Both the position numbers and the translations under genes were made by a program. Source: Akkermansia muciniphila ATCC BAA-835 (GTDB lineage: Bacteria > Verrucomicrobiota > Verrucomicrobiia > Verrucomicrobiales > Akkermansiaceae). Taken from it: DNA of 32,000 nt. Shown piece by piece: positions 2,478 through 23,054 of the stretch. The stretch is taken from contig NC_010655.1 of assembly GCF_000020225.1 (NCBI RefSeq), positions 2,190,001 to 2,222,000 on the forward strand. The letters run 5' to 3'. Positions within the stretch are counted from its first letter, which is position 1, and each line of letters begins with the position of its first letter. The notes beneath the pieces were generated by a model. It had not been told where the DNA came from. It saw only the letters and a list, made by a program, of their open reading frames with translations, and searched no databases.

Positions 2478-2484
2478 TGATCTT

Positions 2485-2946: not shown

Positions 2947-2953
2947 TACAATA

Positions 2954-3772
2954 ATGAATAAGATTATTTTATTTCTTTCAATTAGTTTTTTCATAACAAA
3001 TGCTATGGCGCAGGAAAAGATAGTACAGACGGCGGGACGCACTCAGTTAGGAGAGTTTGCTCCCAAATTTGCGGAACTTAACGATGATGTCCTTTTCGGT
3101 GAAGTATGGAGCCGGACTGACAAGCTCGGTCTGCGTGATCGCAGTTTGGTAACCATCACCTCCCTCATTAGTCAGGGCATTACCGACAATTCGCTCGTTT
3201 TCCATCTTCAGTCGGCAAAGAAGAATGGAGTTACCCGTACCGAGATTGCAGAAATCATCACCCACATCGGTTTTTATGCCGGTTGGCCGAAAGCATGGGC
3301 GGCATTTAATCTGGCCAAAGACGTATGGGCGGAAGATGCGGCTGGCGAAGATGCCAAAGCCGCTTTCCAACGCGAGATGATTTTCCCTTTAGGCGAGCCG
3401 AATACGGCATATGCCAAGTATTTCACAGGCAACAGTTATCTTGCACCCGTTTCACGCGAACAGGTGAATATCTCCAATGTAACTTTTGAACCCCGTTGCC
3501 GCAATAACTGGCATATTCACAAAGCGACGAAAGGCGGCGGGCAGATGCTTATCGGTGTGGCCGGACGCGGCTGGTATCAGGAAGAAGGAAAGCCTGCTGT
3601 GGAAATTCTTCCTGGCACAATCATCCATATTCCCGCCAACGTGAAGCACTGGCACGGGGCTGCCTCCGACAGCTGGTTCTCCCACTTGGCTATTGAGGTT
3701 CCCGGTGAGAATGCATCCAGTGAATGGCTTGAGCCGGTAACGGATGAAGAGTATGCCAAGGCCGTGAAATAA
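2954..3772 (+). CDS. Carboxymuconolactone decarboxylase-family domain fused to a cupin domain, secreted
   Basis: Signal peptide MNKIILFLSISFFITNAMAQ. CMD-like RDRSLVTITSLISQG...GVTRTEIAEIITHIGFYAGWPKAW. C-terminal cupin motifs NNWHIHKATKGGGQ...IHIPANVKHWHGA. Confidence 0.75.
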   Translation: MNKIILFLSISFFITNAMAQEKIVQTAGRTQLGEFAPKFAELNDDVLFGEVWSRTDKLGLRDRSLVTITSLISQGITDNSLVFHLQSAKKNGVTRTEIAEIITHIGFYAGWPKAWAAFNLAKDVWAEDAAGEDAKAAFQREMIFPLGEPNTAYAKYFTGNSYLAPVSREQVNISNVTFEPRCRNNWHIHKATKGGGQMLIGVAGRGWYQEEGKPAVEILPGTIIHIPANVKHWHGAASDSWFSHLAIEVPGENASSEWLEPVTDEEYAKAVK

Positions 3773-4074
3773 TGTGGATACTTCCATGTGAAACAATTAT
3801 AGTGCAATCTGTTGTGTTGGTAATGTAACTGTTTGATACAAATGTAATTAAGAATTTGTTAGATCTGTCGCTTTCTCCGTAATATGGCATACAGTCATTT
3901 TTTGAAAATGCGCGGTATCTTTGCCACATATTGAAAACAAGTTAATATTAAAAGAAAGAAATATGAAATATGTTGAACCTGTATGAGCCTTTTATTTCAC
4001 ATCGGCAGTCATTGTGGGGACAATAATAGAAAACAGTCTTATGCGGTTTAAAAAATATAATAAAAGAATACGAA

Positions 4075-5019
4075 ATGAAAAATCAGTCTAAAATTGCATT
4101 AGGGACATGGTCATGGGGCGCAGGATTTGCCGGAGGCGACCAGGTATTCGGCAATAATCTCGGAGTAGACGAGCTGAGACCCGTATTCGACGAGGCGATG
4201 GCAAACGGGGTGAATTTGTGGGATTCTGCCGTGGTGTATGGTATGGGTACTTCAGAAACGTTGCTCTCGACATTTACAAAGAATAGAAAGCGGGAGGATA
4301 TATTTATCTCGACCAAGTTCACTCCGCAGATTGCAGGCGAGTCGGAAGATCCGGTAGCCGATATGCTGGCAGGGAGCCTCGAACGTTTCGCCACCGGTTA
4401 CGTCGATATTTATTGGATACATAATCCGGCCGACGTGGAAAGATGGACGCCTTATCTTATTCCACTGGTAAAAAGCGGTAAGGTAAAAAGAGTCGGTGTT
4501 TCCAACCATAACCTCGCGCAGATCAAACGTGTGGAGGAAATTCTCTCGCAAGAAGGGATACATCTCTCTGCCGTTCAGAACCATTACAGCCTGCTCTACC
4601 TCTCGTCAGAAAAGGCAGGCATTCTGGATTACTGCAGGGAGAACGGCATCGACTTTTGGGCTTACATGGTGCTGGAACAGGGGGCGTTGAGCGGAAAATA
4701 CGATACCGCGCACCCGTTGCCAGCCGATAGCCAGCGTGGGAAAACCTACAATCCGCTGCTGCCGCAAATAGAAAAACTCGTTGCCGTGATGCGCACCGTG
4801 GGCGATAAGTACGATATTACGCCGGCGCAGGTGGCTCTGGCATGGGCGATAACGAAGGGCACGACGCCGATTATTGGTGTGACGAAACCCTCACAAGTGC
4901 AGGATGCTGTCCGTGCCATGCAGGTCGTGCTGACTGTTGACGAAGTGAAGATGTTGGAGGATGCGGCCGAAAGCACGGGGGTAGATACGAGAGGTTCATG
5001 GGAAAATCCGATGATATGA
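4075..5019 (+). CDS. Aldo/keto reductase
   Basis: Motifs GTWSWG, WDSAVVYG, STKF, YWIHNP, VGVSNH, QNHYSLL and PIIGVTKPSQV. It is preceded by a 300-nt A+T-rich gap. Confidence 0.9.
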   Translation: MKNQSKIALGTWSWGAGFAGGDQVFGNNLGVDELRPVFDEAMANGVNLWDSAVVYGMGTSETLLSTFTKNRKREDIFISTKFTPQIAGESEDPVADMLAGSLERFATGYVDIYWIHNPADVERWTPYLIPLVKSGKVKRVGVSNHNLAQIKRVEEILSQEGIHLSAVQNHYSLLYLSSEKAGILDYCRENGIDFWAYMVLEQGALSGKYDTAHPLPADSQRGKTYNPLLPQIEKLVAVMRTVGDKYDITPAQVALAWAITKGTTPIIGVTKPSQVQDAVRAMQVVLTVDEVKMLEDAAESTGVDTRGSWENPMI

Positions 5020-6032
5020 TGAGGCTGGTTATAATCATCGGAGTTGTCCTGTCTGTATGGTTTGCGGATTGGGCGGCGGCACAGCAGATTGTGGATGTGC
5101 ATTGCCATAACATTATGTCTGGCTATATGGAAGTGTTGAAAAAACATGATGCCGCTTTGGAAGAGACTTTTCCGTTGCCGGAATGGAATGTGGATGCCCA
5201 TCTTGCCTTTATGGAAAAAGCCGGAATCGGTTGTTCTGTATTGTCGATGCCCGCACCGCAACCCTACTTCGGTGATACTGGGGAGTGCCGTCGCATAATC
5301 CGGGAATATAACGAGTATTGCGCCGCTCTGAAAAAGAAATATCCGGGCAAGTTCAAATTTTGCGCTGCACTGCCATTGCCTGACGTGAACGCTGCCATAG
5401 ATGAGGCTGTTTATGCTCTCGATACGCTCGGTGCAGACGGCATCAAGCTGGCCACGAACAGTCGGGGACAGTATATCGGGGATGAAGCCCTCGACCCGTT
5501 GATGGAGGTATTGCACAAGCGGAATGCCGTCGTCATCATTCATCCGCACAAGCCTAATCCGGTTAATGATACCATTATTTCTACCGCCCCGCTTGCAGTC
5601 TATGAATATCCGGCCGAAACGACACGTGCCGTCGTCAATATGATTTCCCGCAACGTGTTGGTGCGCTATCCGAATCTCAAGGTGGTCGTTCCCCATTGCG
5701 GCTCGTTCCTGCCTATGGCGATTCCACGCATGAAGGCTATACACCCGGCTATGCAGGCAAAGGGATTTATGGGTTCAATTGACTGGGATGGCAATCTATC
5801 CCATTTGTACTATGATCTTGCCGGGGGAGCGAGTCCTGAAATCGTGAAGATGATGCTGACGGTCGCTCCGCCAGAGCATATACTTTATGGTTCGGATTAT
5901 CCTTATATGTCTGACGGTGTGTTGTTTGGAAATCTGCAACGGATGCGTGAACAGTTTGCTGCGGATAAGGAACTGTCACCCTATTTGGAACAGTTTTTTT
6001 CGGAAAATGCCCGTAATTTATTTAACAAATAA
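5016..6032 (+). CDS. Amidohydrolase-2 family metal-dependent hydrolase with signal peptide
   Basis: The ATG at 5016 overlaps the AKR stop (ATGA), suggesting translational coupling. Signal-like MMRLVIIIGVVLSVWFADWAAAQ. Motifs VDVHCH, IIHPH, VVPHCG and LYGSDYPY. Confidence 0.8.
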   Translation: MMRLVIIIGVVLSVWFADWAAAQQIVDVHCHNIMSGYMEVLKKHDAALEETFPLPEWNVDAHLAFMEKAGIGCSVLSMPAPQPYFGDTGECRRIIREYNEYCAALKKKYPGKFKFCAALPLPDVNAAIDEAVYALDTLGADGIKLATNSRGQYIGDEALDPLMEVLHKRNAVVIIHPHKPNPVNDTIISTAPLAVYEYPAETTRAVVNMISRNVLVRYPNLKVVVPHCGSFLPMAIPRMKAIHPAMQAKGFMGSIDWDGNLSHLYYDLAGGASPEIVKMMLTVAPPEHILYGSDYPYMSDGVLFGNLQRMREQFAADKELSPYLEQFFSENARNLFNK

Positions 6033-6064
6033 TATTTGAAAACGGAGAGCATACTTTTCGGTAG

Positions 6065-6145
6065 GATAAGATAACCTGTGAAGAGATTGCTACAGCCGTT
6101 ACTTTTTTGATAAGCGACGAAGCCATATTTGTAACCGGAGCTGAC
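6065..6145 (+). pseudogene. Remnant of the C-terminus of a short-chain dehydrogenase/reductase (SDR)
   Basis: The in-frame translation after the TAG at 6062 reads DKITCEEIATAVTFLISDEAIFVTGADC. This matches the conserved SDR C-terminal pattern (PEEIA.AV.FLASDEASF.TG). There is no N-terminal Rossmann part and no plausible start codon. Confidence 0.5.
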
Positions 6146-6202
6146 TGTGAAAACGAACGGCATTATAGGAGCAGAGAACAAATAACAGTAAAAAGAAAGA
6201 AT

Positions 6203-6760
6203 ATGAAAAATATATTGATTATCAGCGGCCATACAAACCTTGCCGCATCTGTAGCCAATAAGACAATCCTTGAAACCTTGAACGAGCGGCTGCCGGAAGC
6301 TGAACTCGTAAAGCTTGACGAACTTTATCCCGATTTCAAGATCGACGTGGAAGCCGAACAACAGAAATTGCTGTGGGCAGACATCATTGTATTGCAATTC
6401 CCTCTCTTTTGGTACTCCGCACCCTCCATATTGGAACGCTGGATGGAAGAAACTTTTCGTCACGGCTTTTCACACGGCAGTACCGGAGACAAGCTCAAGG
6501 GCAAGAAACTCATTCTCTCTTTCACAACGGGAGCGCCCGAAACGCTGTATAGCCGTGAAGGGGCCATGGGCTACGCGATTGATGAATTTCTGCCATGCTA
6601 CAAGGCTGTCTGCCGACTGACTCAAATGGAATACTGCGGCAGTGTTTATACCTGCGGCATAAGTTACGGCAATCGTACGACACCGGAACTTATCGAGCAG
6701 CAAAAGGGAGCATCGGTGGAACACGCTGAACGTCTTATCCGGTTACTTGAAGCGCTCTGA
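6203..6760 (+). CDS. NAD(P)H dehydrogenase (quinone)/flavodoxin-like-fold oxidoreductase (KefF/YwrO-like)
   Basis: The ATG at 6203 begins MKNILIISGHTN. Motifs LLWADIIVLQFPLFWYSAPSILERWMEETF and KKLILSFTTGAP. Confidence 0.8.
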   Translation: MKNILIISGHTNLAASVANKTILETLNERLPEAELVKLDELYPDFKIDVEAEQQKLLWADIIVLQFPLFWYSAPSILERWMEETFRHGFSHGSTGDKLKGKKLILSFTTGAPETLYSREGAMGYAIDEFLPCYKAVCRLTQMEYCGSVYTCGISYGNRTTPELIEQQKGASVEHAERLIRLLEAL

Positions 6761-6863
6761 TGTTTGAATAATTTCGACGCTATGGCCTTCAATTGCCCTC
6801 TATCCGATGACTGCATGAATTTCATGTATGCGGAGGCGGCAGGAAGCAAATAAGAACGCAGAG

Positions 6864-6895
6864 CGGCCGGGATTCCTCATTGGAAATCCCGGCCG
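6864..6895. terminator. Hairpin between convergent genes (possible bidirectional terminator)
   Basis: Perfect 11-bp stem CGGCCGGGATT / AATCCCGGCCG with a 10-nt loop. It lies between the + gene ending at 6760 and the - gene ending at 6923. There is no clean T-run. Confidence 0.45.
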
Positions 6896-6922
6896 ACGTC
6901 TGTTGAGGATTTAAGGGAGGGT

Positions 6923-7408
6923 TTATTCCTCAGGCGCGATGTTCGGCTCGCTGGCGCTGATGTAGTTCAGCGGATTGCAGCTGTCCGGCCTGCGGTTGTC
7001 TAAAAGATCCTGATAAAATTTTTTCTTGTATTTCAACACTTCCATTTGTTTTTTCAGGATTCGGAGCTGTTCCCGGAGACTTTTCTCTTGCTTGAAGATC
7101 AGTTCGGCGCGCTCCGGAATGGTGGAATCCCCTTCCTGGCACAGGTCGATGTAGTGCTTGACGCCTTCAATCGGGAGGCCCGTCATCCGGAGGCAGTGGA
7201 CCAGGCGGAGCCACCCCAGGGTGTAGTCGGAAAACATACGGGCATTCCCTCCGCTGCGGTCCACGTCCGGGATTAATCCGGCGTTTTCGTAATACCGGAT
7301 GGTGTAGGCTGACATTTCCATCATTTCCGCAACCTGCTTGACAGTGTATCTGGGGGTGCGGTCATAAGAAGGGCGGTAGGTGCCGGATGGATTTTTCTGT
7401 TTAATCAT
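6923..7408 (-). CDS. MerR-family transcriptional regulator
   Basis: N-terminal wHTH YTVKQVAEMMEMSAYTIRYYENAGLIPDVDRSGGNARMFSDYTLGWLRLVHCLRMTGLPI, followed by a coiled-coil dimerisation helix. Confidence 0.9.
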   Translation of the reverse strand: MIKQKNPSGTYRPSYDRTPRYTVKQVAEMMEMSAYTIRYYENAGLIPDVDRSGGNARMFSDYTLGWLRLVHCLRMTGLPIEGVKHYIDLCQEGDSTIPERAELIFKQEKSLREQLRILKKQMEVLKYKKKFYQDLLDNRRPDSCNPLNYISASEPNIAPEE

Positions 7409-11967: not shown

Positions 11968-12068
11968 GCACAGGTTCTGGTCTTTTTGCAAAAAATGCTG
12001 CCGGAACCCCGTTTTCCGGCAAGTTGGACACGATAGGTTTGACAGGCAGCTGTTATTGCGGGCGTATT

Positions 12069-14255
12069 ATGAACCGCATGAAGTTCCTTTTATTATCGTT
12101 TGCATGGGTGTGCATGGCTTGCGCCGGAGCATGGGGGCAGGATACGGCCCCGTCTTTCCCGGCTAACGGGGCCAATTACAGGCTGTTTCCGGCGGACCGG
12201 CCTCCGCTGGTTCCCAAACCCCAGCAGCTGCGCTGGGACGACAGGGCCATTCCCGTGCAGTCCGTACGCATTTTGGCTCCGTCTCCGTCCAGGACTTCCT
12301 ATCCGGAACAGATGAAGTTCATTGTTTCCGAATTGAAATCTTTTCTGGCGGAGCACTGCGTGAAGGTGGCTCCGGACGGGACGTTTGCCGTTAAATTCGT
12401 CAAGGGGGATGTGAAAGCCGGCACGGAAAATTCCAAGCTGAAGGAGGAGGCTTATTCCCTCCGAGTAACTTCCGGCGGCGCACTCATTACGGCGATGGAT
12501 ACCAGAGGATTCTATTACGGCATGAAAACGCTGGAGCAGCTTCTTTTGCGCCGCGGCGGGACGACGACCATTGCCGCCTGCGATATCGTGGACTGGCCGG
12601 ATTTTGAAATCCGCGGATTCATGAACGATGTGGGACGCAATTACATGCCGCTGCCTCTGATTGCACGGGAGCTGGATTCCATGGCGCAGCTCAAGCTGAA
12701 TGTTTACCACTTCCATTTTACGGAGAACCCCGGCTGGCGGCTGGAATCCAAAATTTATCCGGAGCTGAACGCCCCCGAAAATTATACGCGCATGCCTGGC
12801 AAGTTTTACACGCAGAAGGAGTTTAAGCAGCTGGTGGAGTACTGCCGCCTGCGCAATATCCTGCTGATTCCGGAGATGGATATGCCGGGGCACAGCCAGA
12901 TGTTCCGCAAGGCGCTCAACGTGAAGATGAGCGATGAAAAAGCCACCAAAGCCCTGGTGGCCCTGATCAAGGAGTTGTGTTCCCTGGTTCCCAAGGAGAA
13001 AATGCCCATCATCCACATTGGCACGGACGAGGTGCGCGGCAAGGATGAGCAGGTGAACAATGAGATTCTTAAGGAGTACATCCATGCAGTGGAGTTCTGC
13101 GGCCGCATTCCCATGAGATGGCAGCCCGGCCTGACGCCGAAGGGCTATAACGGCTCCATCCAGCAGTTATGGTCCGGCCGCCAGAACCGTGGCGCATGGC
13201 CTACCGACGGAGCGAAGTATGTTGATTCCCTGGAGACTTACCTGAACCACCTTGATCCGTTTGAAACGGCCATGACCATGTATTTCCGCCGGGCATGCCC
13301 GTTTCGGAATGCGGAAGGACTGGGCATGATGCTGTGTTCTTTCCCGGACCTGGAAATTACGGATCCGCGCAACCAAGTTCTTCAGACGCCCGTTTACGCC
13401 GGCATGGCGTTCGTTTCCGAACCTTTGTGGAATAATCCCCATGAGAAGGTGCTGGGAGACCCCAACCAGGACGAATATATGAAGTATTTTTCCAATCTGC
13501 CCGTGCAGGGGGATCCTCTGCTGAAGGGGTTTGCGGATTACGAGAACCGCGTGCTCGCCATCCGGGACCGTTTTTTCGTGGATAAGGAGTTTAATTACGT
13601 ACGGCAGGCGAATATTCCCTGGAAATTGCTGGGGCCTATTCCCAACGGCGGTAAGACGGAAAAGGAATTCGCTCCGGAGGAGGACAACAAGGCAGGGAAG
13701 ATGAGGGATTCCTACGAGATTGACGGCGTCACCTATGAGTGGTCCGGAGACGATTACACGGGGGCCACCATCATTTTCAAGCATTACTGCGATTTTCCGA
13801 CGCTGTTCAATGGCGCAAAGATGGGAGCTTATCCCCACAAAAACCACACTTATTACGCGCAGACCTGGATTTATTCCCCCAAGGCGCAGACGGTGCCTTT
13901 CTGGATCAGCGGACATACCTGGGCCACGTCCGATTGGCGCAACGGTCCGGCGAGCGTTCCCGGCAAGTGGTTTCATGCGGATCCCAAATTTTTTGTGAAC
14001 GGCCGGGAGATTGCCCCCCCGCAATGGAAAAAGCCGCGTAACAGCGGCGTGATGGTGGATGAAAACTACCATTTCCGGGAGCCTTCCATGGTTCCTCTTA
14101 AGAAGGGTTGGAACCGCGTGCTGGTAAAGAGCCCCAGCAACAATTCCGCGCGTCGGTGGATGTTCACATTCGTTCCGGTGCTGGTGAACCCCAAGACGCC
14201 CGGCTGCAATGTGAAGGAGTATCCCGGCCTCAAATTTTCCACACGTCCGGAATAG
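12069..14255 (+). CDS. Secreted beta-N-acetylhexosaminidase, GH20, with a C-terminal beta-sandwich extension
   Basis: Signal peptide MNRMKFLLLSFAWVCMACAGAWG. GH20 motifs RGFMNDVGRNY, YHFHFTENPGWR, IPEMDMPGH and the catalytic HIGTDEV. Confidence 0.9.
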   Translation: MNRMKFLLLSFAWVCMACAGAWGQDTAPSFPANGANYRLFPADRPPLVPKPQQLRWDDRAIPVQSVRILAPSPSRTSYPEQMKFIVSELKSFLAEHCVKVAPDGTFAVKFVKGDVKAGTENSKLKEEAYSLRVTSGGALITAMDTRGFYYGMKTLEQLLLRRGGTTTIAACDIVDWPDFEIRGFMNDVGRNYMPLPLIARELDSMAQLKLNVYHFHFTENPGWRLESKIYPELNAPENYTRMPGKFYTQKEFKQLVEYCRLRNILLIPEMDMPGHSQMFRKALNVKMSDEKATKALVALIKELCSLVPKEKMPIIHIGTDEVRGKDEQVNNEILKEYIHAVEFCGRIPMRWQPGLTPKGYNGSIQQLWSGRQNRGAWPTDGAKYVDSLETYLNHLDPFETAMTMYFRRACPFRNAEGLGMMLCSFPDLEITDPRNQVLQTPVYAGMAFVSEPLWNNPHEKVLGDPNQDEYMKYFSNLPVQGDPLLKGFADYENRVLAIRDRFFVDKEFNYVRQANIPWKLLGPIPNGGKTEKEFAPEEDNKAGKMRDSYEIDGVTYEWSGDDYTGATIIFKHYCDFPTLFNGAKMGAYPHKNHTYYAQTWIYSPKAQTVPFWISGHTWATSDWRNGPASVPGKWFHADPKFFVNGREIAPPQWKKPRNSGVMVDENYHFREPSMVPLKKGWNRVLVKSPSNNSARRWMFTFVPVLVNPKTPGCNVKEYPGLKFSTRPE

Positions 14256-14510: not shown

Positions 14511-15461
14511 TCACAGTATTTTCCAGGGAATATGTTCCAATAGTTCGTCAAAGCCGAGCCCCGTGCCTCCAGGAACAGCTGCCTGAGGGTCCATGCCTCC
14601 CATCCGGTCTATAAAGGGGTCCGGCTCAAACAGGAGGTGGGTGCAGAGGCCGCAGAGGGGAATTTCCGTGGGCAGGGAGTTGCGGTAATATTCCGCCGCC
14701 TGGTAAACGGCCCAGAGCTGCCCTACGGGGTGATCCATGACAGTGGTGAAGACGGGAGGTTCGTAAAGATATTCCGGCGTTGCTTCCCGTGCGGGTTTGA
14801 CGATGCGGATGATGGGCAGGTCCGAGGAGATGGCCGGCTGGTGTTCCACATCCGAACCCATGTCCAGGGCCAGAGGCATGCCGGCGTCTACCAGACGTTC
14901 CCAGCTCTGGATGGAGAAGGGGCACGGGTCTTCTATGAAGTCTATTCTGGTTTTCAGATGGTGGGGCAGGGATTTCCAGAATTTCAGGGCATCGTTTTCA
15001 TTCAGGCATCCGTTGAAGTCCAGCCGCCAGCGCCAGGAGGGAACCATGGATGCCAGCATCGTCAGCCGTTCTAGGGCGGCGGCCAGATTGGCGCTGGCCT
15101 TGATTTTTCCTGCCTTGAATCCCTTGGATTCCATGATGCGAATGGTAGCGGGGCTGACGCAGGAGGGCAGCGTGGCGTGGCTTTCCGGAATGTGAAGACC
15201 GTCAAACAGGCTGACGCCCCTCGCGCGTGCTTCCCCGTCCGTTCGGGCGCACTCCGCGGCGCGGACGCCCAGAGGCAGAGGGCGGCCCTTCCTGAGCGCG
15301 TCCAATTCCTCTTGCAGGGTGGCGTCTCCCAGTTCCGGCCACGGCTGGATGCAGCCGTACCCGCCTTCATCCGTTTTAATGAGGGCTCCCTTCCTGCACA
15401 CTTCCGCGGCTCTGGCGTTCAGAGGGCCGCAGGCTGTTAAAGAATATTCATGGTAAAACAC
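14511..15461 (-). CDS. menC: o-Succinylbenzoate synthase-like enolase-superfamily enzyme
   Basis: The motif order matches E. coli MenC: GKIKAS (KxK), RLDFNG, FIEDPC, ALDMGS, IVKPA. Confidence 0.6.
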   Translation of the reverse strand: MFYHEYSLTACGPLNARAAEVCRKGALIKTDEGGYGCIQPWPELGDATLQEELDALRKGRPLPLGVRAAECARTDGEARARGVSLFDGLHIPESHATLPSCVSPATIRIMESKGFKAGKIKASANLAAALERLTMLASMVPSWRWRLDFNGCLNENDALKFWKSLPHHLKTRIDFIEDPCPFSIQSWERLVDAGMPLALDMGSDVEHQPAISSDLPIIRIVKPAREATPEYLYEPPVFTTVMDHPVGQLWAVYQAAEYYRNSLPTEIPLCGLCTHLLFEPDPFIDRMGGMDPQAAVPGGTGLGFDELLEHIPWKIL

Positions 15462-15552
15462 AACTTTAATTCAAACAACCTTTCCTTCTTTTGTCACGAT
15501 GAAAAAAGGTTTTCATTGGATTTTGGAGGGTGAAACGTCTAAGCTCTGCGTC

Positions 15553-16458
15553 ATGTACAGAACATTGGTGTTCGGGGCGGACGGCCGGGTGGGAAGCCGT
15601 CTGGCAGCGTATCTGGAAGAACATGGCCTGGAGGTGGTGAAGTGCGGACGGGGCTTTTGTGATTTGAAGGATTTAAGCGCTTTGAAACGTGTTCTGCTTT
15701 CTTCCGGAGCCACTCATGTGGTGAATTGCGCCGCTGTGAGCGGATTGGAAGCCTGCCTGGATGATCCGGAGACGGCCCACTGCGTCAACGCCATGGCTCC
15801 GGAGATGATGGCGCGCATTTGCCGCCTGGAGGGCATGCGCTTTATCCATTTGAGTACGGATTATGTGCTGGACGGCAGGAGGAGAGGTTTGAAAACGGAG
15901 GAGGGGAAGTGCCGCCCCGTAAATGTGTACGGAGAGTCCAAGCTGGAGGCGGAATTCCGTGTGCGGGAGGAGATGCCGGACGCTCTGATAGCCCGCGTTT
16001 CCTGGGTATTCGGCAATCCGGAACGGCCCTCATTCCCGGAAATGGTGCTGCGGCGGGCGATGAAAAGGGAGCCCCTGGCCGCTGTGGCGGATAAATGGTC
16101 CATGCCTACATGGGTGGAAGATTTATGTGCATGGCTCCGTTTTCTGGCTTATGAGAGCGGGGCGTCCGGCGTGCTGCATCTGTGTCAGTCCGGAGAGCCT
16201 GTTTCCTGGCACAGTTATGCCGTGGCCGTGCTGAAATGCGCCGTGAAGCACGGGTTACTGCCTTCTTTGCCGCCTGTGGCGGAACAAAAGCTCGACGAAC
16301 AGGCCGGTTTCAGGGATGCTCGGCCCCGGCATACCGCCATGTCCAGCGAACGCCTCTCTTCCCTGATGAAGCAGCCCGTGAGGGCGTATGAAGAGGCCAT
16401 TGACATGGCCGTGGCCCGCTATGCCGCAGATCCAACCTTTCTCTCCAGCATTTCATGA
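15553..16458 (+). CDS. RmlD-like NAD(P)-dependent sugar-nucleotide reductase (dTDP-4-dehydrorhamnose reductase family)
   Basis: Motifs LVFGADGRVGSRL, VVNCAAVSGLEAC, HLSTDYVLDG, YGESKLEAE and LIARVSWVFG. Confidence 0.75.
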   Translation: MYRTLVFGADGRVGSRLAAYLEEHGLEVVKCGRGFCDLKDLSALKRVLLSSGATHVVNCAAVSGLEACLDDPETAHCVNAMAPEMMARICRLEGMRFIHLSTDYVLDGRRRGLKTEEGKCRPVNVYGESKLEAEFRVREEMPDALIARVSWVFGNPERPSFPEMVLRRAMKREPLAAVADKWSMPTWVEDLCAWLRFLAYESGASGVLHLCQSGEPVSWHSYAVAVLKCAVKHGLLPSLPPVAEQKLDEQAGFRDARPRHTAMSSERLSSLMKQPVRAYEEAIDMAVARYAADPTFLSSIS

Positions 16459-17756
16459 ATGATTTCCACAATTCCCGTGATTCCCGCCCCAGGCCCGTTT
16501 ACCGGGACCGCCGTTCCCAGCCGGGCCGCCCGCGCACAGCTCCCAAAAAGAACCTTTTTGCCAACAAGTCGCCGGAAGGGAGCGAACAATGGCTCAAGCC
16601 CTGGGTGGAGCTGAAGTATTTCACATACAATCCGGCCGTGTTCCCCCGCATGCTCGGCTCCGTAAGCGGGGAAATAGCGCCGGGAAGCCTGGTAAACGTC
16701 TATGACAAGAACGGTGAACTGTTCGGCGCCGGATTCTGGAATGAGTCCAGCCGCACGCCCCTGCGCATGGTGTACCACGGGAAGGACGTTTTTGCCGAAC
16801 GTGACCTGGATGCTGCGCTGGAACGAGCCGTGAAGCTGCGCAGGGAAGTTCTGCGCCTGGATGAAACCACTAATGCGTACCGTGTGCTGCACGGAGATTC
16901 CGACGGACTGGGCGGCCTGGTGGTGGACCGTTACGCGGACGTGCTGAGCCTGGAGGTGAGTACGCTGGCCGTCTGGCAGAGGCTGAACCGCTGGCTGCCC
17001 CTGCTGCACCGCCTGTGCGGCACAAAACGCCATGTGGTGCAGGTGGATGAGGGCATTGCCCGCATGGAGGGCATCCGGGCGGAGGAGGCGCCGGCATCCC
17101 CAGCCCCCGTCAGGCTGGTGAAGATTGTGGAAAACGGCATCACCTATGAAGTGGACTTCGCCCAGGGGCACAAGACGGGCTTTTTCTGTGACCAGCGGGA
17201 CAACCGCCTCAAGTTCGCCTCCCTGGTGAAGGGGGCCACGGTGCTGGACCTGTGCTGCTACAGCGGCGGCTTTTCCATTGCCGCCAAGATGCTGGGCGGA
17301 GCGGCGGAGGTAACGGCTGTGGATTTGGATGAGAAAGCCGTCGCCATGGCTAAAAGAAACGGAAATATCAACCGTCAGCGCATCGACTTCGTGCATGCGG
17401 ATGCCTTTGTCTATGCGCGCCAGATGGTGCGCAACGGCCGCCTGTTTGACGCCGTGCTGCTGGACCCGCCCAAATTCATCGTTGGCAGGGACGGATATGA
17501 AGAGGGCATCAAAAAATACCATGACCTCAATATGTTGGGGCTGCAATGCGTGCGTCCCGGCGGCCTGTTTGTCACCTGTTCCTGTTCCGGGCTGCTTTCC
17601 CCCGCGGAGTTTGAGCATACCGTCATCAAGGCCGCCCAGCGGCAGGGGCGCAAGCTTCAGATTATGGCGATGACCGGCCCCGGTTGGGACCACCCTTTCC
17701 TGAGCACTTATCCGGAGGGCCGTTATCTGAAGGTTCTGTGGGCAATTGCCCTGTAG
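16455..17756 (+). CDS. PUA-domain class I SAM-dependent rRNA methyltransferase (RlmI-like) with an Arg/Pro-rich N-terminal extension
   Basis: The start overlaps the preceding stop (ATGA at 16455-16458). Motifs GLGGLVVDRYADVLSLEV, GHKTGFFCDQRDNR, VLDLCCYSGGFS, LLDPPKF and FVTCSCS. Confidence 0.85.
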   Translation: MNDFHNSRDSRPRPVYRDRRSQPGRPRTAPKKNLFANKSPEGSEQWLKPWVELKYFTYNPAVFPRMLGSVSGEIAPGSLVNVYDKNGELFGAGFWNESSRTPLRMVYHGKDVFAERDLDAALERAVKLRREVLRLDETTNAYRVLHGDSDGLGGLVVDRYADVLSLEVSTLAVWQRLNRWLPLLHRLCGTKRHVVQVDEGIARMEGIRAEEAPASPAPVRLVKIVENGITYEVDFAQGHKTGFFCDQRDNRLKFASLVKGATVLDLCCYSGGFSIAAKMLGGAAEVTAVDLDEKAVAMAKRNGNINRQRIDFVHADAFVYARQMVRNGRLFDAVLLDPPKFIVGRDGYEEGIKKYHDLNMLGLQCVRPGGLFVTCSCSGLLSPAEFEHTVIKAAQRQGRKLQIMAMTGPGWDHPFLSTYPEGRYLKVLWAIAL

Positions 17757-17844
17757 CTGGAGGTTGAGGCCCGGGATGCATTTCGGAAAAACCTTTCAGG
17801 CGTGTTGACGTTCTTTGCCCCTCTCTGCTTTCGTGGTGAGGAAT

Positions 17845-20313
17845 ATGGCAAAACAAGTATTGCAGCGGCTCAGTTTTACGGCCGGGGAGCTGACCCCGTG
17901 GCTGGCCGGACGCGCCGACCTGGATCCCGTGTCCCGTGGCGCCTCCCGGCTGATAAATTTTCTGGTCAGCCCCTTCGGCGGTCTCCGGCGCAGGCCGGGA
18001 ACACGCCTGGTCGCCCGCGCGGGATGCCGGGAGGGCATGGTGAGGCTGGTTTCCTTCAAGTACTCCACGGGCGTGCAGTTCATGCTGGAAGTGGGGCGCG
18101 GCTACGTCCGGTATTTTAAAAATGGCGCGCTTCTGACGGATACGGAAGGCGGGGTGCTGGAAACGCTTACTCCGTGGAAGACGGATGAACAGGTAAGCAA
18201 CCTCCGGATGCAGCAGCTGAATGACGTGATTTACTGCGTGGAACCTTCTACGCCGCCTATGACGCTGGCCCGCTACGCAGACGATGACTGGCGGCTGGAA
18301 GCGTTGGAGTTTTCCGGAATTCCTTATGAGAGTTCCCTGTTGAATGCCGTGCGGCTGGAATGCCGCATGGTGCGGGAGGGGGGCGTCAACAGGCTGCTGG
18401 CGACGGCGGACGATGATGTATTCACTCCGGAAATGGAGGGAAAGGAGTTTCTGCGCATCACCAGGAAATATGGAGAAACCGTGGCGGAGGGAAACCAGAT
18501 GCCTTTTTACCATTTGACGACTCTGAGCCGGGATCTTTACAAGGGAGAGACTTTTTCCATGAACCGGGAGGACGGCTGGCGGCAGGCTTATACCTGCATC
18601 CGCGATTTCAGCCGGGAAAGCGACTACCAGGAAGGGGTGGACCGCCCGGAGAGGTACACGGCCTTTTTTGAAAAAGGGGCCGATGCCAGTACCCGCATTT
18701 ATGTCAACGGCGCGTGGACGTTGGAGACGACGGGGACCTGGGATGCGGAGTGGGAAATCTGCCGGGGGTATCCGGACGGCTCCAATTACCTTCCCAACCG
18801 TCCGGAATTAGTGTGGCATTCCGTGAAGAGCTTCCAGCAGAGGGAGGGGTTCCGGAATAATTTCACCCTGAGCGGCAATGAAGAGGAAATGTCCTACTAC
18901 AAAATCCGCCTCATGGCTTACAAGGACGGGTCTTCTGCGGGAACGCCCGTATTCCGCGCATCAGCCGGCTCCTTTAACCATGAAGTGGTGGTGGAGGAAT
19001 ATGTTTCCCCGCGCAGCGCCTATCTTGCGAGTGCCCTTCATCTGTCCTATCATACGCTGAGTGACTGTGATACCAATGACTGGTCTTTTGGTGCGTTCGG
19101 GGTCCGGAACGGTTATCCGTGCACGGTAGAGTTCCATCAGGGGCGGCTGTGGTTCGGAGGCACTCCTGGGCAGCCCCAGACGCTGTGGGCCAGCAGGGTG
19201 GATGATTTTTCCGCGTTTACGCCCGGCATTCCGGCGGATTCCCCCATGATTCTGACAATGGCCGCTTCCCAGCAGAACCGCATTTCCTGGATAGCTTCCC
19301 TCCGGGGGCTGATGATTGGAACCAGCGAGGGGGAATGGCGTCTGTCCGCCACCAATTCAGAAGGGTTGAATGCCTCTAATGCCGGATTTGAGCGCCATTC
19401 CGGCGTGGGGTCTGCCTCCCTGGATGCCCTGTCTGTAGAAAACAGCCTTCTTTTTGTGCAGCAGGGCGGGATGAAGGTTCGGGAATTATTTTATTCTCTG
19501 GAGGCCGACGGTTACCAGACAAGGGATGTGAGCCTGTTGTCCGACCATTTGCTGGGGGAGGGAATTGTGGACTGGACTGTACAGAGGAGCACGGCGTTCC
19601 ATGTCTGGTGCGTTCTGGGTGACGGCAGCGCCGTATGCATGACTCTGAACAGGGAACAGAATGTGGTGGCGTGGCATGCACACCGCCTGGAACACGGCCG
19701 CATTCTGTCCGTGGCGTCCCTGCGCGGTTCCCGCAACACACCGGACGAGGAAGTATGGTTTGCCGTGGCGCGCGGGGAAGGGGAGGAGGCCTGCATTACG
19801 GTGGAATGCATGGCGGATGGGAATGCCTGCCTGGATGCCTGCACGGAGGCTGTCGTGAAGGGGGAGACGCTGTCCGGCCTGAGCCATTTGGCGGGATGCG
19901 GCGCCTTTCTGGTGGGCGGGGACGGCGCATGCATGGACATCAGCGTTGACGGAGCCGGGAATGCCGCCTGTCCCGGAAGGGGGGACGGGGAAACAGTATC
20001 CGTAGGCCTGGCCGCTCCGGCGGAAGTAAGGACGATGCCCCTGGAAACGCTTGAGACGCTGGGTTGCTTTAAAAAGCAGCTCGGTGCGCGCGTCCTGCTT
20101 CATGAAAGCACCCTGAAATTCCGCTACGGAACGGGAACTCCGGAGGCATGGAAGGATTTCCAGCCCGGCAGGTACGGTGTTTCCGAACCTTACTCCGGCT
20201 ATGTGCGGATGATTCACAACTATGGTATGGATGAGCAGTCTTCCTTTGCCCTCCGTGTGGAGACTCCGGCTCCATTTAACCTTCTGGCCCTGGTGCTGGA
20301 TGTGGAATTATAG
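17845..20313 (+). CDS. Large hypothetical protein resembling a podovirus tail-hub/nozzle protein (T7 gp12 / P22 gp10 class)
   Basis: GGTGAGGA lies 5 nt before the ATG at 17845. The N-terminus FTAGELTPWLAGRADLDPVSRGASRLINFLVSPFGGLRRRPGT resembles T7 gp12 (KGGISQQPDILRYPDQGSRQVNGWSSETEGLQKRPP). The central stretch WSFGAFG..VEFHQGRLWFGGTPGQPQTLWASRVDDFSAF..DSPMILTMAASQQNRISWIASLRGLMIGTSEGEWRL resembles gp12 (WPSFVG..FFFRNRLGFLSGENIILSRTAKYFNFYP..DDPIDVAVSTNRI..LLIWSDEAQFVL). The comparison is from memory only. Confidence 0.5.
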   Translation: MAKQVLQRLSFTAGELTPWLAGRADLDPVSRGASRLINFLVSPFGGLRRRPGTRLVARAGCREGMVRLVSFKYSTGVQFMLEVGRGYVRYFKNGALLTDTEGGVLETLTPWKTDEQVSNLRMQQLNDVIYCVEPSTPPMTLARYADDDWRLEALEFSGIPYESSLLNAVRLECRMVREGGVNRLLATADDDVFTPEMEGKEFLRITRKYGETVAEGNQMPFYHLTTLSRDLYKGETFSMNREDGWRQAYTCIRDFSRESDYQEGVDRPERYTAFFEKGADASTRIYVNGAWTLETTGTWDAEWEICRGYPDGSNYLPNRPELVWHSVKSFQQREGFRNNFTLSGNEEEMSYYKIRLMAYKDGSSAGTPVFRASAGSFNHEVVVEEYVSPRSAYLASALHLSYHTLSDCDTNDWSFGAFGVRNGYPCTVEFHQGRLWFGGTPGQPQTLWASRVDDFSAFTPGIPADSPMILTMAASQQNRISWIASLRGLMIGTSEGEWRLSATNSEGLNASNAGFERHSGVGSASLDALSVENSLLFVQQGGMKVRELFYSLEADGYQTRDVSLLSDHLLGEGIVDWTVQRSTAFHVWCVLGDGSAVCMTLNREQNVVAWHAHRLEHGRILSVASLRGSRNTPDEEVWFAVARGEGEEACITVECMADGNACLDACTEAVVKGETLSGLSHLAGCGAFLVGGDGACMDISVDGAGNAACPGRGDGETVSVGLAAPAEVRTMPLETLETLGCFKKQLGARVLLHESTLKFRYGTGTPEAWKDFQPGRYGVSEPYSGYVRMIHNYGMDEQSSFALRVETPAPFNLLALVLDVEL

Positions 20314-20327
20314 GCGCAGGAGTGCGT

Positions 20328-20609
20328 TTACGGCTGTTCAGCCGCCTCTTCATGGGAAAGCATATGCACAATGACCTTGATGCCGTGTTTTTCCCCAGCC
20401 GCCTTCGCCAGGGAACGAATGGCGGAGGCCGTCATTCCATTGCGGCCGATGATGCGCGCCACGTCCGTTTTTTCCAGAATCAGGCGGAAGCGGACGGCGT
20501 CTCCCTGCGGGGATTCCGCAACGCGCAATTCCGCCTGTTCCGGGTGTTGCACGAATTGCAGGGCGATCAATTGCAGGTACTGGCGGATTTGTTCTACGGC
20601 AGGATGCAT
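20328..20609 (-). CDS. KH-domain RNA-binding protein (YlqC/UPF0109 family)
   Basis: LQFVQHPEQAELRV...FRLILEKTDVARIIGRNGMTASAIRSL has the GxxG KH motif and the same layout as B. subtilis YlqC. Confidence 0.85.
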   Translation of the reverse strand: MHPAVEQIRQYLQLIALQFVQHPEQAELRVAESPQGDAVRFRLILEKTDVARIIGRNGMTASAIRSLAKAAGEKHGIKVIVHMLSHEEAAEQP

Positions 20610-20643
20610 GAAGGGAAATATGGGTTATTTTCATGAACCATAC

Positions 20644-20672
20644 TATAAAGCCGCCTGATTGAAAAGATGCAA
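20644..20672 (-). promoter_or_regulatory. Candidate sigma70-type promoter for the KH gene
   Basis: On the minus strand: TTGCAT (20672-20667), a 17-nt spacer, then TTTATA (20649-20644). It lies about 35 nt upstream of the ATG at 20609 and downstream of the terminator hairpin. Confidence 0.35.
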
Positions 20673-20700
20673 TTCCAGACATTCCCTGAAAAAGAAAGTC

Positions 20701-20725
20701 GCCCCGGCCGTAAAACGGCCGGGGC
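20701..20725 (-). terminator. Rho-independent terminator for the minus-strand methyltransferase gene
   Basis: Perfect 10-bp GC-rich stem GCCCCGGCCG / CGGCCGGGGC with a 5-nt loop. On the minus strand it is followed by GACTTTCTTTTTC. Confidence 0.55.
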
Positions 20726-20745
20726 GCCCCAACTACCCTATGAAA

Positions 20746-20776
20746 CTGGATCGGTTAAGATCCAGAGAGCTTTTTT
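20746..20776 (+). terminator. Plus-strand terminator-like hairpin with T-run
   Basis: 7-bp stem CTGGATC / GATCCAG with a 6-nt loop, then AGAGC and TTTTTT (20771-20776). No annotated plus-strand gene ends nearby. Confidence 0.4.
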
Positions 20777-20940
20777 AACGAGCGCTCACCTGCTCGAGGC
20801 GCAATATAGTGGAGGAAAAGGGGATACGCAAGTATTTTTTCATTGGAACGATGTTTTTGTTCAATGGAAATAGCATCGTATTTTTACTTCATTTTGACAA
20901 TATCGGGACCGGAGGAATGGTTATTGTTATTGTCATGAAA

Positions 20941-22125
20941 TCATCTTCCGGGAAGCAGTTCATACGTGAACCCCTTCAGGTATTCCGTTTCCGGAATATT
21001 CAATAAAACCGGATGATCCGCTCTTTGGCCGTGTTGCTGCATCAGACGCAGGGTGGCCGGAGCATCAATGGCGGCGTCAAGCACGCTCTCCCGGAACAGG
21101 TCCGCTCCGGCGTGGTGGGAACAGCAGAAGGTGGAAAGGATGCCTCCCGGGGCCAGAAGCTTCATGGCGCGGAGGTGGATTTCCTTATATCCGCGCATGG
21201 CGTCATGCACGGATTTTTTGTTTCTGGTAAAAGAGGGCGGATCCAGGATAATTAAATCCCATTTGTGTTCTCCTCCGTCCCGGACAAGGGCCGCTTCCTT
21301 TTTCAGGAAGTCAAACGCGTTATCCGTGACGCACTGCACGGAGACTCCGTTCAGGCGGGCGTTCCGCGCTACGGCGTCCATAGCATCCTGGGAAACGTCC
21401 ACGGCCGTTACCTCCGAGGCACCGGCAAGGGCGCAGGCCAGGGCGAAACCGCCCTGGTTGCAGAAGCAGTCCAGCACGCGGCGTCCGCGGGCGAAGCGAG
21501 CCACGGCGGCATAATTGTCAAGCTGGTCCAGATACAGGCCGGTTTTTTGTCCCGTCTGAAGGTCAATCATGAATTGCACGCTGCCGCTGCGTGCGGCAAA
21601 AGGTTCCGGTTGCTGTCCTCGTGCCACCCGGACGGAGGGGGAAATACCTTCTGCCGCCAGCATGGGTGAATCATTCCTGACAATAATCCCGCGGGGAGAA
21701 AGAAGGTCTTCCAAAACATTCAGGATGATGGGGAGGCGGCATTCCATGGCGATCGTCAGCGTCTGGACGACCAGATAATCCGCGTAACGGTCCACAATGA
21801 GGCCGGGAAGCCCGTCGGATTCGCTCCAAACGAGCCGGGTGAGAGTTTCTTCCGGAAGCCGGCGGCGGCGCAGTTCTACTGCCTGGCTGATGCGCCTGGA
21901 AAAGAAATCTCCGTTCAGTTCCTGTTTGCGGCGGGAAAAGCGCCTGGCGACGATCTGGGAATGGGGATTGAACATGGCGGAACCCAGAAAGCGGTCCTTG
22001 AAATCCTTCAGGGCCACGACGTCCCCCGGCTGCGGATTGCCGAAAATTTTGCGCACTTCCGTGCCGTAAACCCAGTCGTGCCCTTGAAAAATGCGTGCTC
22101 TTGGAGAAATAATCAAACCTGCCAT
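20941..22125 (-). CDS. PUA-domain class I SAM-dependent rRNA methyltransferase (RlmI-like), second paralogue
   Basis: Motifs GLPGLIVDRYADYLVVQT, GQKTGLYLDQLDNY, VLDCFCNQGGFA, ILDPPSF and FCCSHH. The ATG at 22125 was chosen. Confidence 0.85.
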   Translation of the reverse strand: MAGLIISPRARIFQGHDWVYGTEVRKIFGNPQPGDVVALKDFKDRFLGSAMFNPHSQIVARRFSRRKQELNGDFFSRRISQAVELRRRRLPEETLTRLVWSESDGLPGLIVDRYADYLVVQTLTIAMECRLPIILNVLEDLLSPRGIIVRNDSPMLAAEGISPSVRVARGQQPEPFAARSGSVQFMIDLQTGQKTGLYLDQLDNYAAVARFARGRRVLDCFCNQGGFALACALAGASEVTAVDVSQDAMDAVARNARLNGVSVQCVTDNAFDFLKKEAALVRDGGEHKWDLIILDPPSFTRNKKSVHDAMRGYKEIHLRAMKLLAPGGILSTFCCSHHAGADLFRESVLDAAIDAPATLRLMQQHGQRADHPVLLNIPETEYLKGFTYELLPGR

Positions 22126-22310
22126 GTCAGGAAAGGCAATACATGATCGGGGTGGAAAGTTCAAGGGTAATGCGGGCGGCTCCCAGAAAGGCCGTGGGAA
22201 GGGTGGAGGCCTCCGTTCCCTGGGATTTTTCGCGCAAGTACGCCGCTGTGCATCATTCCGGGACTATTTCGGTTGAAAATGCCCGGAAACGAAGTAAAAT
22301 AGGGCGCGTT

Positions 22311-23054
22311 ATGAAAGTAGAAACTTTTGAAACTCCCCAGGATGCTGCCAAGGCTTTGGCAGGAGAAGTTGCGGAATTGATCCGTACGCGCGCCGCTGAA
22401 GGCAAAAACGTGGTTCTTGGCCTTGCCACGGGCGCCACTCCGCTGCCTTTTTACGCGGAGCTGGTCCGCATGCATAAGGAGGAAGGCCTTTCCTTTGCCA
22501 ACGTGATTTCCTTCAATCTGGACGAATACAGCGGCTTGGATCGCGACCATCCGGAATCCTACTGGTACTTCATGCACACGAATCTTTTCAACCACATCGA
22601 CATCAAGCCGGAAAACATCAACCTGCCCTCCGGCACGGTGAAGGATGATGAAATTGCCGCCCACTGCGCCGCCTATGAACAAAAGATCAAGGATTGCGGC
22701 GGTATCGACCTCCAGATTCTCGGCATTGGCCGAACTGGCCATATCGGCTTTAACGAACCCGGCTCCGATGATACCACCGTCACCCGGCAGGTTCATCTGG
22801 ACGAACTGACCCGTTCCGATGCTGCTCCCGCTTTCGGCGGTATTGAAAATGTTCCCACCACCGCCATTACCATGGGCGTGGCTACCATCATGGGCGCCCG
22901 TGAAGTGGCTTTGATGGCCTGGGGAGAAAAGAAGGCGTCCATCGTGAAAAAGGCTGTTCAGGGGCCTGTGACGGTGGATGTGGCCGCCTCCTACCTTCAG
23001 AAGCATCCGAACGCCAAGTTTCTTCTGGACAAGGGGGCTGCTTCCCTCCTTTAA
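22311..23054 (+). CDS. nagB: Glucosamine-6-phosphate deaminase
   Basis: Motifs VVLGLATGATPLPFY, SFNLDEY and LQILGIGRTGHIGFNEPGS. The ATG at 22311 starts MKVETFETPQDAA. Confidence 0.92.
   Translation: MKVETFETPQDAAKALAGEVAELIRTRAAEGKNVVLGLATGATPLPFYAELVRMHKEEGLSFANVISFNLDEYSGLDRDHPESYWYFMHTNLFNHIDIKPENINLPSGTVKDDEIAAHCAAYEQKIKDCGGIDLQILGIGRTGHIGFNEPGSDDTTVTRQVHLDELTRSDAAPAFGGIENVPTTAITMGVATIMGAREVALMAWGEKKASIVKKAVQGPVTVDVAASYLQKHPNAKFLLDKGAASLL

Follow-up and report, generated by a model that had tools for sequence, protein, structure and literature searches.

Why does the chromosome of Akkermansia muciniphila carry, among genes for cellular functions, a single gene that resembles a component of a podovirus tail? 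The gene lies at 17845..20313 on the plus strand of a 32,000-nucleotide stretch of the A. muciniphila ATCC BAA-835 genome (contig NC_010655.1, positions 2,190,001 to 2,222,000; "the window" refers to this whole stretch), and a preliminary description, made from the sequence alone, likened its product to the tail nozzle of phage T7 and proposed that an isolated, intact phage component had been domesticated for a new role. The 822-aa open reading frame (ORF), running from an ATG at 17845 to a stop codon at 20311-20313, encodes a genuine podovirus tail nozzle (tail tubular protein B) of the T7 gp12 class, as supported by profile and structural analyses. It is intact, is under purifying selection, and has been inherited vertically together with its housekeeping flanks. 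Intactness and domestication thus stand; the part of the proposal that is not supported is that the protein acts on its own, since an adaptor, a portal and a scaffold-like gene are present at a second locus. On balance we lean towards a reading in which the nozzle belongs to an old podovirus-derived set that was passed on by vertical descent and is split between loci in Akkermansia.

The nozzle matches the PHROG 376 'tail protein' profile along its entire length (E=2.4e-134; residues 1-821 on profile positions 1-708 of 712) and the 'Tail Nozzle' of Cobetia phage Carin-1 (PDB 8ck1_A; E=3e-60) in blocks at residues 9-215 and 410-635, with no matches in Pfam or NCBIfam. An AlphaFold2 model built on 30 homologues has a predicted local distance difference test (pLDDT) score of 88.9 and a predicted template modeling (pTM) score of 0.82. 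The preliminary description had suggested comparison with the T7 gp12 and P22 gp10 structures, and when the model is compared to the PDB using Foldseek both are among the top 21 matches, all of which are podovirus nozzle or hub proteins. The Carin-1 nozzle is among them (8ck1_A; E=5e-46, TM 0.65), the T7 gp12 entries have TM values of 0.52-0.54, and the other matches include LME-1, cyanophage A4, HRP29, Kp9, PhiM1, SU10 and Pa223. The two motif blocks on which the resemblance was originally recognized fall where they had been placed, and their residues (G14, E15, P18, R23, D25, N38, P43, G45, G46, R50 and G52, then G423, Y424, P425, R434 and L435, with others) are common to at least 70% of 33 viral nozzles. 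The Carin-1 nozzle, T7 gp12 and, more distantly, P22 gp10 have in common with the Akkermansia nozzle full-length homology, the same N-terminal motif block, a beta-propeller core and the overall fold; the lengths are 822 aa for the Akkermansia nozzle, 826-830 aa for the Carin-1 nozzle chain and ~790 aa for T7 gp12. Unlike the viral nozzles, the Akkermansia protein is the product of a bacterial core gene that has no other phage gene within 32 kb of it, belongs to a separate and vertically inherited clade, contains a lineage-specific domain at residues 161-400, and is only ~20-30% identical to any viral protein.

The protein divides into four regions, all encoded on the plus strand, under differing degrees of selection (measured as omega, the ratio of non-synonymous to synonymous substitution rates, dN/dS). 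The N-terminal region common to phage nozzles (residues 1-160; 17845..18324) contains the motif G-E-L-x-P...R-x-D...N...P-x-G-G...R-x-G, aligns with residues 15-216 of the Carin-1 nozzle, and is among the most conserved blocks of the clade and the most shared with the 33 viral nozzles (omega 0.09). Presumably this is the region that docks onto the adaptor, by analogy with the tail structures of T7 and P22. Its first 60 residues are the most constrained part of the protein (omega 0.04), and this constraint is the one indication, and an indirect one, of a predicted nozzle hexamer that would sit on an adaptor dodecamer and gate a virion DNA channel. Comparison with viral nozzles delimits a lineage-specific, beta-rich insertion domain of 240 residues (161-400; 18325..19044), whose clade consensus is found in only 3-15% of them and which has no sequence alignment to the Carin-1 nozzle, but which is still under purifying selection (omega 0.12). 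The beta-propeller core common to phage nozzles (residues 401-640; 19045..19764) includes the W-S-F-G-A...G-Y-P...Q-G-R-L-W-F-G block, aligns with Carin-1 nozzle residues 318-546 (E=1.6e-35), matches PHROG 15566, and has an omega of 0.07. The C-terminal, tip-side region (residues 641-822; 19765..20310), which is covered by the full-length PHROG 376 match and by the Foldseek alignments, is the least constrained (omega 0.17, rising to 0.30 at residues 661-720). Omega thus lies between 0.03 and 0.30 throughout, with the tightest constraint at residues 1-60 and in the propeller blades.

The start codon at 17845 is indicated by the orthologues, which keep both the N-terminus MAKQVLQRLSF and a Shine-Dalgarno-like GAGGA at 17838-17842; an alternative TTG start upstream, at 17815, is not conserved. 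The ~55-60 nt preceding the ATG form a putative 5' control region (17791..17844, plus strand) that is conserved in five genomes (the window and L001-L004), including two (L002 and L004) with differing AT-rich islands directly upstream; no sigma-70 consensus promoter was found within it. Several other features that had been described from the sequence are borne out. Shine-Dalgarno-like motifs are indeed rare, occurring at canonical spacing in only 2 of the 23 other genes in the window, and the composition of the nozzle gene (GC 0.59, and 0.69 at third codon positions) is host-like, within the range of its neighbors. Portal, terminase, capsid, integrase and lysis genes are likewise absent from the 32-kb window: all of the nozzle's neighbors are cellular, the ORFs without a Pfam match have no PHROG match either, and the nozzle is the sole match when 30 phage-cluster proteins are compared to the window by tblastn. 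Rfam and tRNA scans of the window gave no matches. In the viral contig used as a positive control (L009) the nozzle gene is accompanied by portal, scaffold or protease, major head protein, fibre, lysozyme, adaptor and internal virion protein genes, whereas a structural module with the nozzle beside an adaptor and portal is found neither in the window nor in the flanks of 13 nozzle loci. From the gene count between Amuc_1815 (GH20) and Amuc_1822 (NagB), the nozzle gene is probably Amuc_1819.

These 13 Akkermansia-clade loci all contain a full-length nozzle ORF (97-31% identity) with no frameshift or stop, and in each of them the nozzle is solitary among core genes, in at least six different contexts. 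Four other Akkermansia genomes have a window-type neighborhood and a full-length 822-aa ORF with identities of 97, 90, 87 and 86%. In L005 (58% identity) the gene is near KhpA and the second RlmI gene in a rearranged setting, in L055 (42%) the order is RmlD, RlmI, nozzle, and in L007 (36%) it occupies the same RmlD-RlmI-nozzle-KhpA-RlmI-NagB slot as in the window; in L054, L056, L053, L052 and L008 (36-31%) it lies beside GyrB, ComEC, bactofilin/beta-CASP, SecA/Ffh and NadE. Pairwise dN/dS, another of the suggested checks, is 0.10-0.115 for the nozzle and 0.00-0.18 for its neighbors, with comparable synonymous divergence (dS), and demonstrates purifying selection. In a distance tree the 30 cellular nozzles group into a single long-stemmed clade that is separate from 33 IMG/VR nozzles, and no Akkermansia-type nozzle was found on IMG/VR contigs, where the best full-length identity is ~30%. 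An exhaustive profile search of 1.84 billion representatives identified 18,599 members of the nozzle family with a clear score gap: 11 representatives, all of the Akkermansia clade, score 838-1163 bits, four others reach 580-646 bits, and below these lies a phage-like continuum. The cluster containing the window's nozzle ('hypothetical protein [Akkermansia muciniphila]'), the commonest nozzle sequence, is represented on ~900 A. muciniphila contigs. A fragment of 84 residues that is 100% identical to Akkermansia nozzle residues 34-117 is also present on a 260-bp contig (L006) of a 'Pseudomonas sp.' assembly, and is almost certainly a contaminant of that assembly.

The four proteins of intermediate score, together with their relatives (P0164-P0167 and P0303-P0305), are the nearest outgroup of the Akkermansia nozzle. 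In three contigs of this sister lineage (L057, L058 and L059) the nozzle is part of a conserved ~10-kb cluster, with cellular genes on both sides that differ between the genomes. One strand encodes a large terminase (TerL, 551 aa), o133, o92, a portal (557 aa; PF12236, PHROG 332), o71, o128, an M15 endolysin (absent from L059), o104 and o82, and the other strand encodes an adaptor (197 aa; PHROG 394), the nozzle (841 aa) and an internal-virion-like protein (PHROG 418). No capsid, scaffold, fibre, integrase or replication genes were found in the cluster. Within the sister group the terminase and portal are 68-78% identical, and the nozzle only 36-46%. The sister proteins are the nearest outgroup of both the nozzle and the portal of Akkermansia, and housekeeping proteins compared between sister and Akkermansia contigs (MurJ, U32 peptidase and an RluD-like protein) are 50-64% identical. 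The corresponding portal identity of 61% lies within this range, which fits vertical descent of the element.

When the sister portal is used as a query, hundreds of Akkermansia proteins are recovered with 55-62% identity. The largest cluster of these (P0423), annotated by NCBI as 'MULTISPECIES: portal protein [Akkermansia]', has 1,752 members on ~950 contigs, including 3.1-Mb chromosomes. The portal locus, as seen in L060-L062, has on its minus strand o85 (41% identity to sister o133), a 97-aa helix-turn-helix (HTH) protein with weak regulator matches, and a 206-aa adaptor (PHROG 394, 2e-41; 48% to the sister adaptor). The plus strand carries o71 (PHROG 831; comparison with the sister o71 gave no significant match), the 544-aa portal (PHROG 332, 1e-82), a Bbp19-like o93 (67% to sister o92) and a 293-aa scaffold-like gene (PHROG 3742, 2e-26), past which the locus continues into cellular genes. 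PHROG 3742 is also the family of the gene located between portal and capsid in the viral contig L009. The same unit is conserved within entirely different flanks in a second Akkermansia-clade species (L143), with identities of 74% for the portal, 66% for the HTH protein, 64% for o85, 63% for o93, 61% for the adaptor and 49% for the scaffold-like protein. Among A. muciniphila-type portal copies all substitutions (8/8) are synonymous, and omega at the portal locus is 0.10-0.18. The preliminary description had also suggested looking elsewhere for a gp11-like adaptor, and the adaptor of this locus answers to it: its only PDB match by sequence is the Carin-1 'Connector Protein' (8ck1_E, 1.6e-13), and that of the gp8-like portal is the Carin-1 portal (8ck0_A, 2.3e-31). 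Given that the best PDB matches of nozzle, adaptor and portal are all from Carin-1, the three trace to one phage lineage.

Two observations on the portal locus were set aside. An apparent disruption of the scaffold-like gene in L061 is only an assembly gap (a run of N). An 'incomplete prophage' called by PHASTER in strain DSM 22959 (910,027-918,161; PMC9367757) was considered as the portal locus and rejected, as the length of its first gene equals that of the neighbor in L061 but the sequences differ; the supplement to the same paper contains no nozzle or portal peptides.

A metagenome scan using the sister terminase as query reveals three kinds of locus. The first consists of classic podovirus prophages with the order TerL, portal, o92, scaffold, capsid, adaptor, nozzle. 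The second consists of strain-variable Akkermansia prophages, present on tens to ~150 contigs compared to ~1,000 for core genes, of which L069 and L076 represent two types with nozzles of 1,135 and 941 aa respectively. Prophage and core nozzles are 33-36% identical over ~250-300 aa, and prophage and core adaptors are 27% identical. The L069 type (L069:4910-21524) has a sharp left boundary at ~4910 and encodes a capsid (328 aa), the 1135-aa nozzle, TerL, an adaptor, proteins of 226 and 118 aa, an 869-aa glucosaminidase protein, and a giant ORF that runs off the end of the locus; we considered whether this element might complement the core locus while lacking a portal itself, but rejected this, as the element extends past the region examined. 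The L076 type (L076:3300-11572) has a TerS-like gene, the 941-aa nozzle and then TerL, and adjoins a tRNA-like sequence. The third kind is an isolated TerL beside a giant ORF in animal-gut Akkermansia sp. (L063). In L063:3448-12231 and L065:2512-11563 the TerL gene directly follows a giant ORF (1766-2041 aa), has a product 55% identical to the sister TerL, and is without other recognizable phage genes; the giant ORF of L063 has no PHROG or PDB match. This TerL locus may be a third locus of the domesticated set.

Copies of the portal locus also occur in viral databases: that of A. muciniphila turns up, with 89-100% identity, in approximately 27 'viral' contigs of IMG/VR, and one portal copy is listed in UniRef as 'Siphoviridae sp.'. 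In these IMG/VR contigs a separate prophage abuts the locus, with its own portal (PDB 8rka_A, E=8.5e-6), capsid, tape-measure-like gene and fibres. Since L061 and L143 carry the portal locus without any such prophage, its inclusion in IMG/VR is a boundary artefact, and we do not take these matches as evidence of mobility. The abutting element (L222:228-17754, equivalent to L146:1-7760) is a widespread ~30-35 kb Akkermansia prophage, integrated beside the core portal locus in some strains, that encodes a 705-aa portal, a 318-aa capsid, an 832-aa tape-measure-like protein and a fibre, and has weak similarity to Akkermansia phage DTMo-2021a (CP084202.1). Provirus predictors pull the portal locus, with its core portal, adaptor and scaffold-like genes, into neighboring prophage calls, and inflate the 'viral' assignments of Akkermansia DNA.

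How might the parts of such a split set have arisen, and what could they do? We propose that a single ancestral podovirus prophage was captured before the Akkermansia and sister lineages diverged, that it would have lost its integration, replication, fibre and apparently capsid genes, and that in Akkermansia rearrangement would have broken up the captured set. The nozzle may still work as a nozzle, with six copies predicted to dock through the strongly constrained N-terminal region onto an unlinked adaptor ring, itself seated on a portal ring, the whole forming a portal-tail channel complex. Docking of the nozzle on an adaptor-portal stack is probable. The most speculative step is that the portal-tail complex would serve a domesticated phage-like particle or DNA conduit resembling a gene transfer agent (GTA), rather than a virus. 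We offer only tentatively, as a possible but doubtful interpretation, that the portal-adaptor-nozzle machine is core cellular equipment of Akkermansia and its relatives and represents either the first podovirus-derived multi-locus GTA, and the first in the Verrucomicrobiota, or a capsid-less DNA or protein conduit with a terminase motor in some lineages. Among the candidate roles we rank a GTA-like particle or conduit first, followed by interference with infecting podoviruses, then a lone exapted protein, and last a dead remnant or an active phage.

The GTA-like role is favored because a terminase has been kept in some lineages and a scaffold-like gene in Akkermansia. GTAs such as the RcGTA of Rhodobacter capsulatus resemble the Akkermansia set in consisting of phage structural genes without integration or replication functions, fixed, vertically inherited, under purifying selection, and located at more than one locus. 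Vertical inheritance and purifying selection, as expected of a GTA-like element, are seen at both the nozzle and portal loci; these are separate and bounded by cellular genes, as is the sister cluster, which has no integrase match. Well-characterized GTAs are typically descended from long-tailed phages, and their gene sets contain a capsid and a terminase. The Akkermansia parts differ from these in being of podovirus type (portal, adaptor and nozzle) and in that no capsid, and no core terminase in A. muciniphila, was found; moreover, GTA particles package DNA, whereas the Akkermansia set is known from genes alone. Membership of the nozzle in its protein family is established, while membership of the set among GTAs is not.

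Several observations weigh against the proposed set and its GTA-like role. Of the head and packaging genes, the sister cluster has a TerL and L063 an isolated one, but no capsid gene was found in the sister cluster or at the nozzle or portal locus of Akkermansia, which weakens the case for a particle or conduit. It is weakened further by the lack of a core large terminase in A. muciniphila, where only prophage TerLs were found, albeit in a metagenome scan that was non-exhaustive. Sequence change in the nozzle is 2-3 times faster than in the portal or terminase (31% versus 61% identity), as would also be expected of a nozzle with a surface-facing or phage-facing role. No upstream motif beyond chance is common to the nozzle 5' region and the portal-locus intergenic region. 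The presence of nozzle and portal in the same genomes is deduced from cluster statistics rather than read off one chromosome, and the sister contigs (L057-L059) lack an established taxonomy. Finally, we found no paper mentioning Amuc_1819 in the literature searched, and it is absent from three proteome or transcriptome supplements.

The alternative that survives best is that the core nozzle, adaptor, portal and scaffold-like proteins interfere with phage assembly, acting as decoys that co-assemble with or cap the heads and tails of infecting podoviruses to give dead particles. There are potential targets, as the strain-variable Akkermansia podovirus prophages carry distant homologues of the core nozzle and adaptor, and a scaffold-like gene with no capsid gene nearby would suit the hijacking of a phage capsid protein. 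The nozzle is also the fastest-evolving large protein of the set, but purifying selection along it is uniform with no region near an omega of 1, and the regions in common with phage nozzles are the most conserved rather than the most diversified. Accessory AT-rich islands lie directly upstream of the nozzle in two genomes, although PADLOC gives no match for the nozzle and only one weak match (E=6e-4) for the island ORFs (L002 and L004). Defence genes are usually patchy in distribution, whereas the nozzle behaves as a core gene, clade-wide and vertically inherited. We therefore regard interference as unlikely, although it is a possibility to be taken seriously.

Less probable still is that the nozzle is truly solitary and has been exapted to serve the cell by itself in a new capacity, for instance as an envelope channel or part of a secretion system. 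It is unlinked from other phage-like genes in 13 genomes and still intact in at least six contexts, it has its own conserved 5' region and a 240-residue lineage-specific domain, and no regulatory motif is common to it and the portal locus. However, selection has maintained an adaptor and a portal from the nozzle's own phage lineage in this species, and in the sister lineage both are contiguous with the nozzle. Furthermore, the tightest constraint is on the N-terminal block common to virion nozzles, and by eye no signal peptide is visible at the N-terminus. These considerations make a solitary role improbable.

The preliminary description offered as its own alternative that the gene is the last fragment of a decaying prophage, without function, and this we reject as very improbable. 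It is true that integrase, replication, fibre and capsid genes are not nearby, and that the set is fragmentary and lineage-dependent, the sister lineage having kept TerL and endolysin, and Akkermansia a scaffold-like gene. Cryptic and defective prophage remnants are similarly fragmentary, lack integrase and many essential functions, and show differential loss between lineages. Such remnants are normally strain-variable and decaying, whereas the Akkermansia set is clade-wide and intact with an omega of ~0.1: pseudogenization, relaxed selection and patchiness are not seen in the nozzle, which is full-length in all 13 genomes and has a dN/dS of ~0.11, has survived repeated relocation, and has been retained while housekeeping proteins diverged to an identity of only 50-64%. 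Least probable of all is that the nozzle belongs to a present-day mobile prophage or phage satellite with other genes beyond the window, because, in spite of the portal copies in IMG/VR and UniRef, these IMG/VR contigs include an abutting prophage with a portal and capsid of its own, the portal locus occurs without that prophage in L061 and L143, the Akkermansia-type nozzle is on no IMG/VR contig, and nozzle synteny and dS match the chromosomal flanks.

Phage satellites (phage-inducible chromosomal islands (PICI), their capsid-forming variants (cf-PICI) and P4-like elements) and tailocins also resemble the Akkermansia set in that partial complements of phage morphogenesis proteins are found outside a complete phage genome. 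Satellites of these types are mobile and patchily distributed, and carry genes for integration and replication; R- and F-type tailocins are descended from contractile or flexible tails, and their genes encode tube, sheath and baseplate. To our knowledge there is no podovirus-derived tailocin. Neither the mobility, integrase and replication genes of satellites nor the tube, sheath and baseplate genes of tailocins are features of the Akkermansia set, and no tube, sheath, tape-measure, baseplate or lysis-cassette genes of tailocin type were found at the nozzle or portal loci.

Domesticated phage elements are known, but we found no paper on a podovirus set of portal, adaptor and nozzle that is fixed in a core genome and distributed among several loci, nor any on an Akkermansia GTA or on a core Akkermansia portal and nozzle. 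A. muciniphila is a much-studied gut symbiont and probiotic candidate, yet its 822-aa core nozzle is annotated only as 'hypothetical'. Retention of the nozzle together with an unlinked portal and adaptor since before the genus diversified points to an unrecognized phage-derived apparatus in this lineage. Should this be a GTA-like particle, it would have consequences in Akkermansia for both horizontal gene flow and the engineering of strains; interference would constitute a new kind of chromosomal phage resistance based on structural proteins, and a conduit would be a new class of envelope machine.

The genes surrounding the nozzle in the window are, in order, GH20 (12024-14255), MenC (14511-15461, minus strand), RmlD (15499-16458), an RlmI-family methyltransferase (16455-17756, plus strand), the nozzle, KhpA directly downstream (20328-20609, minus strand), a second RlmI-family methyltransferase (20941-22164, minus strand) and NagB (22143-23054). 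The GH20 gene is consistent with Amuc_1815, a beta-N-acetylhexosaminidase (PMC7459334), and the published cloning primer for NagB (Amuc_1822; PMC5902328) matches window positions 22143-22160 exactly. The experimentally used NagB start at 22143 overlaps the 5' end of the divergent RlmI-like ORF by 22 nt, if the TTG start of the latter at 22164 is real. The two methyltransferases flanking the nozzle on opposite strands are paralogues (~31% identical; PUA and SAM-MTase domains). They were considered as phage genes on the strength of matches to a PHROG labelled 'DNA methyltransferase', but NCBIfam identifies them as RlmI-family 23S rRNA 5-methylcytosine (m5C) methyltransferases, which are highly conserved core genes, and the PHROG label looks misleading.

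The AT-rich accessory islands upstream of the nozzle are ~2.3 kb in L002 (7715-9940) and ~5 kb in L004 (5070-9930), are inserted ~60 nt upstream of the nozzle ATG, and have a common right junction, TTCTTCACATCACC; the equivalent insertion site in the window is at ~17790. The protein products of the L004 island are 342, 506 and 345 aa long and yield a single weak PADLOC match, to PD-Lambda-5_A. The site upstream of the nozzle may be an insertion hotspot. A KhpB/Jag-like R3H protein (L061:411-860) is encoded ~9 kb from the portal locus, and its pairing with the KhpA gene next to the nozzle is probably a coincidence. KhpA and the second RlmI gene are separated by 330 nt of non-coding sequence (20610-20940), in which there is, on the minus strand, a 12-bp GC-rich hairpin with a T-run (20700-20726) and no Rfam match. 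Elsewhere in the window, the segment from 1900 to 7400 has a GC content of 0.47-0.50, compared to ~0.55-0.60 in the remainder, and contains a cluster of redox or detoxification-type genes (flavodoxin-like, ABM, CMD/cupin, aldo-keto reductase and amidohydrolase) beside a MerR regulator, and perhaps represents an island gained by horizontal transfer.

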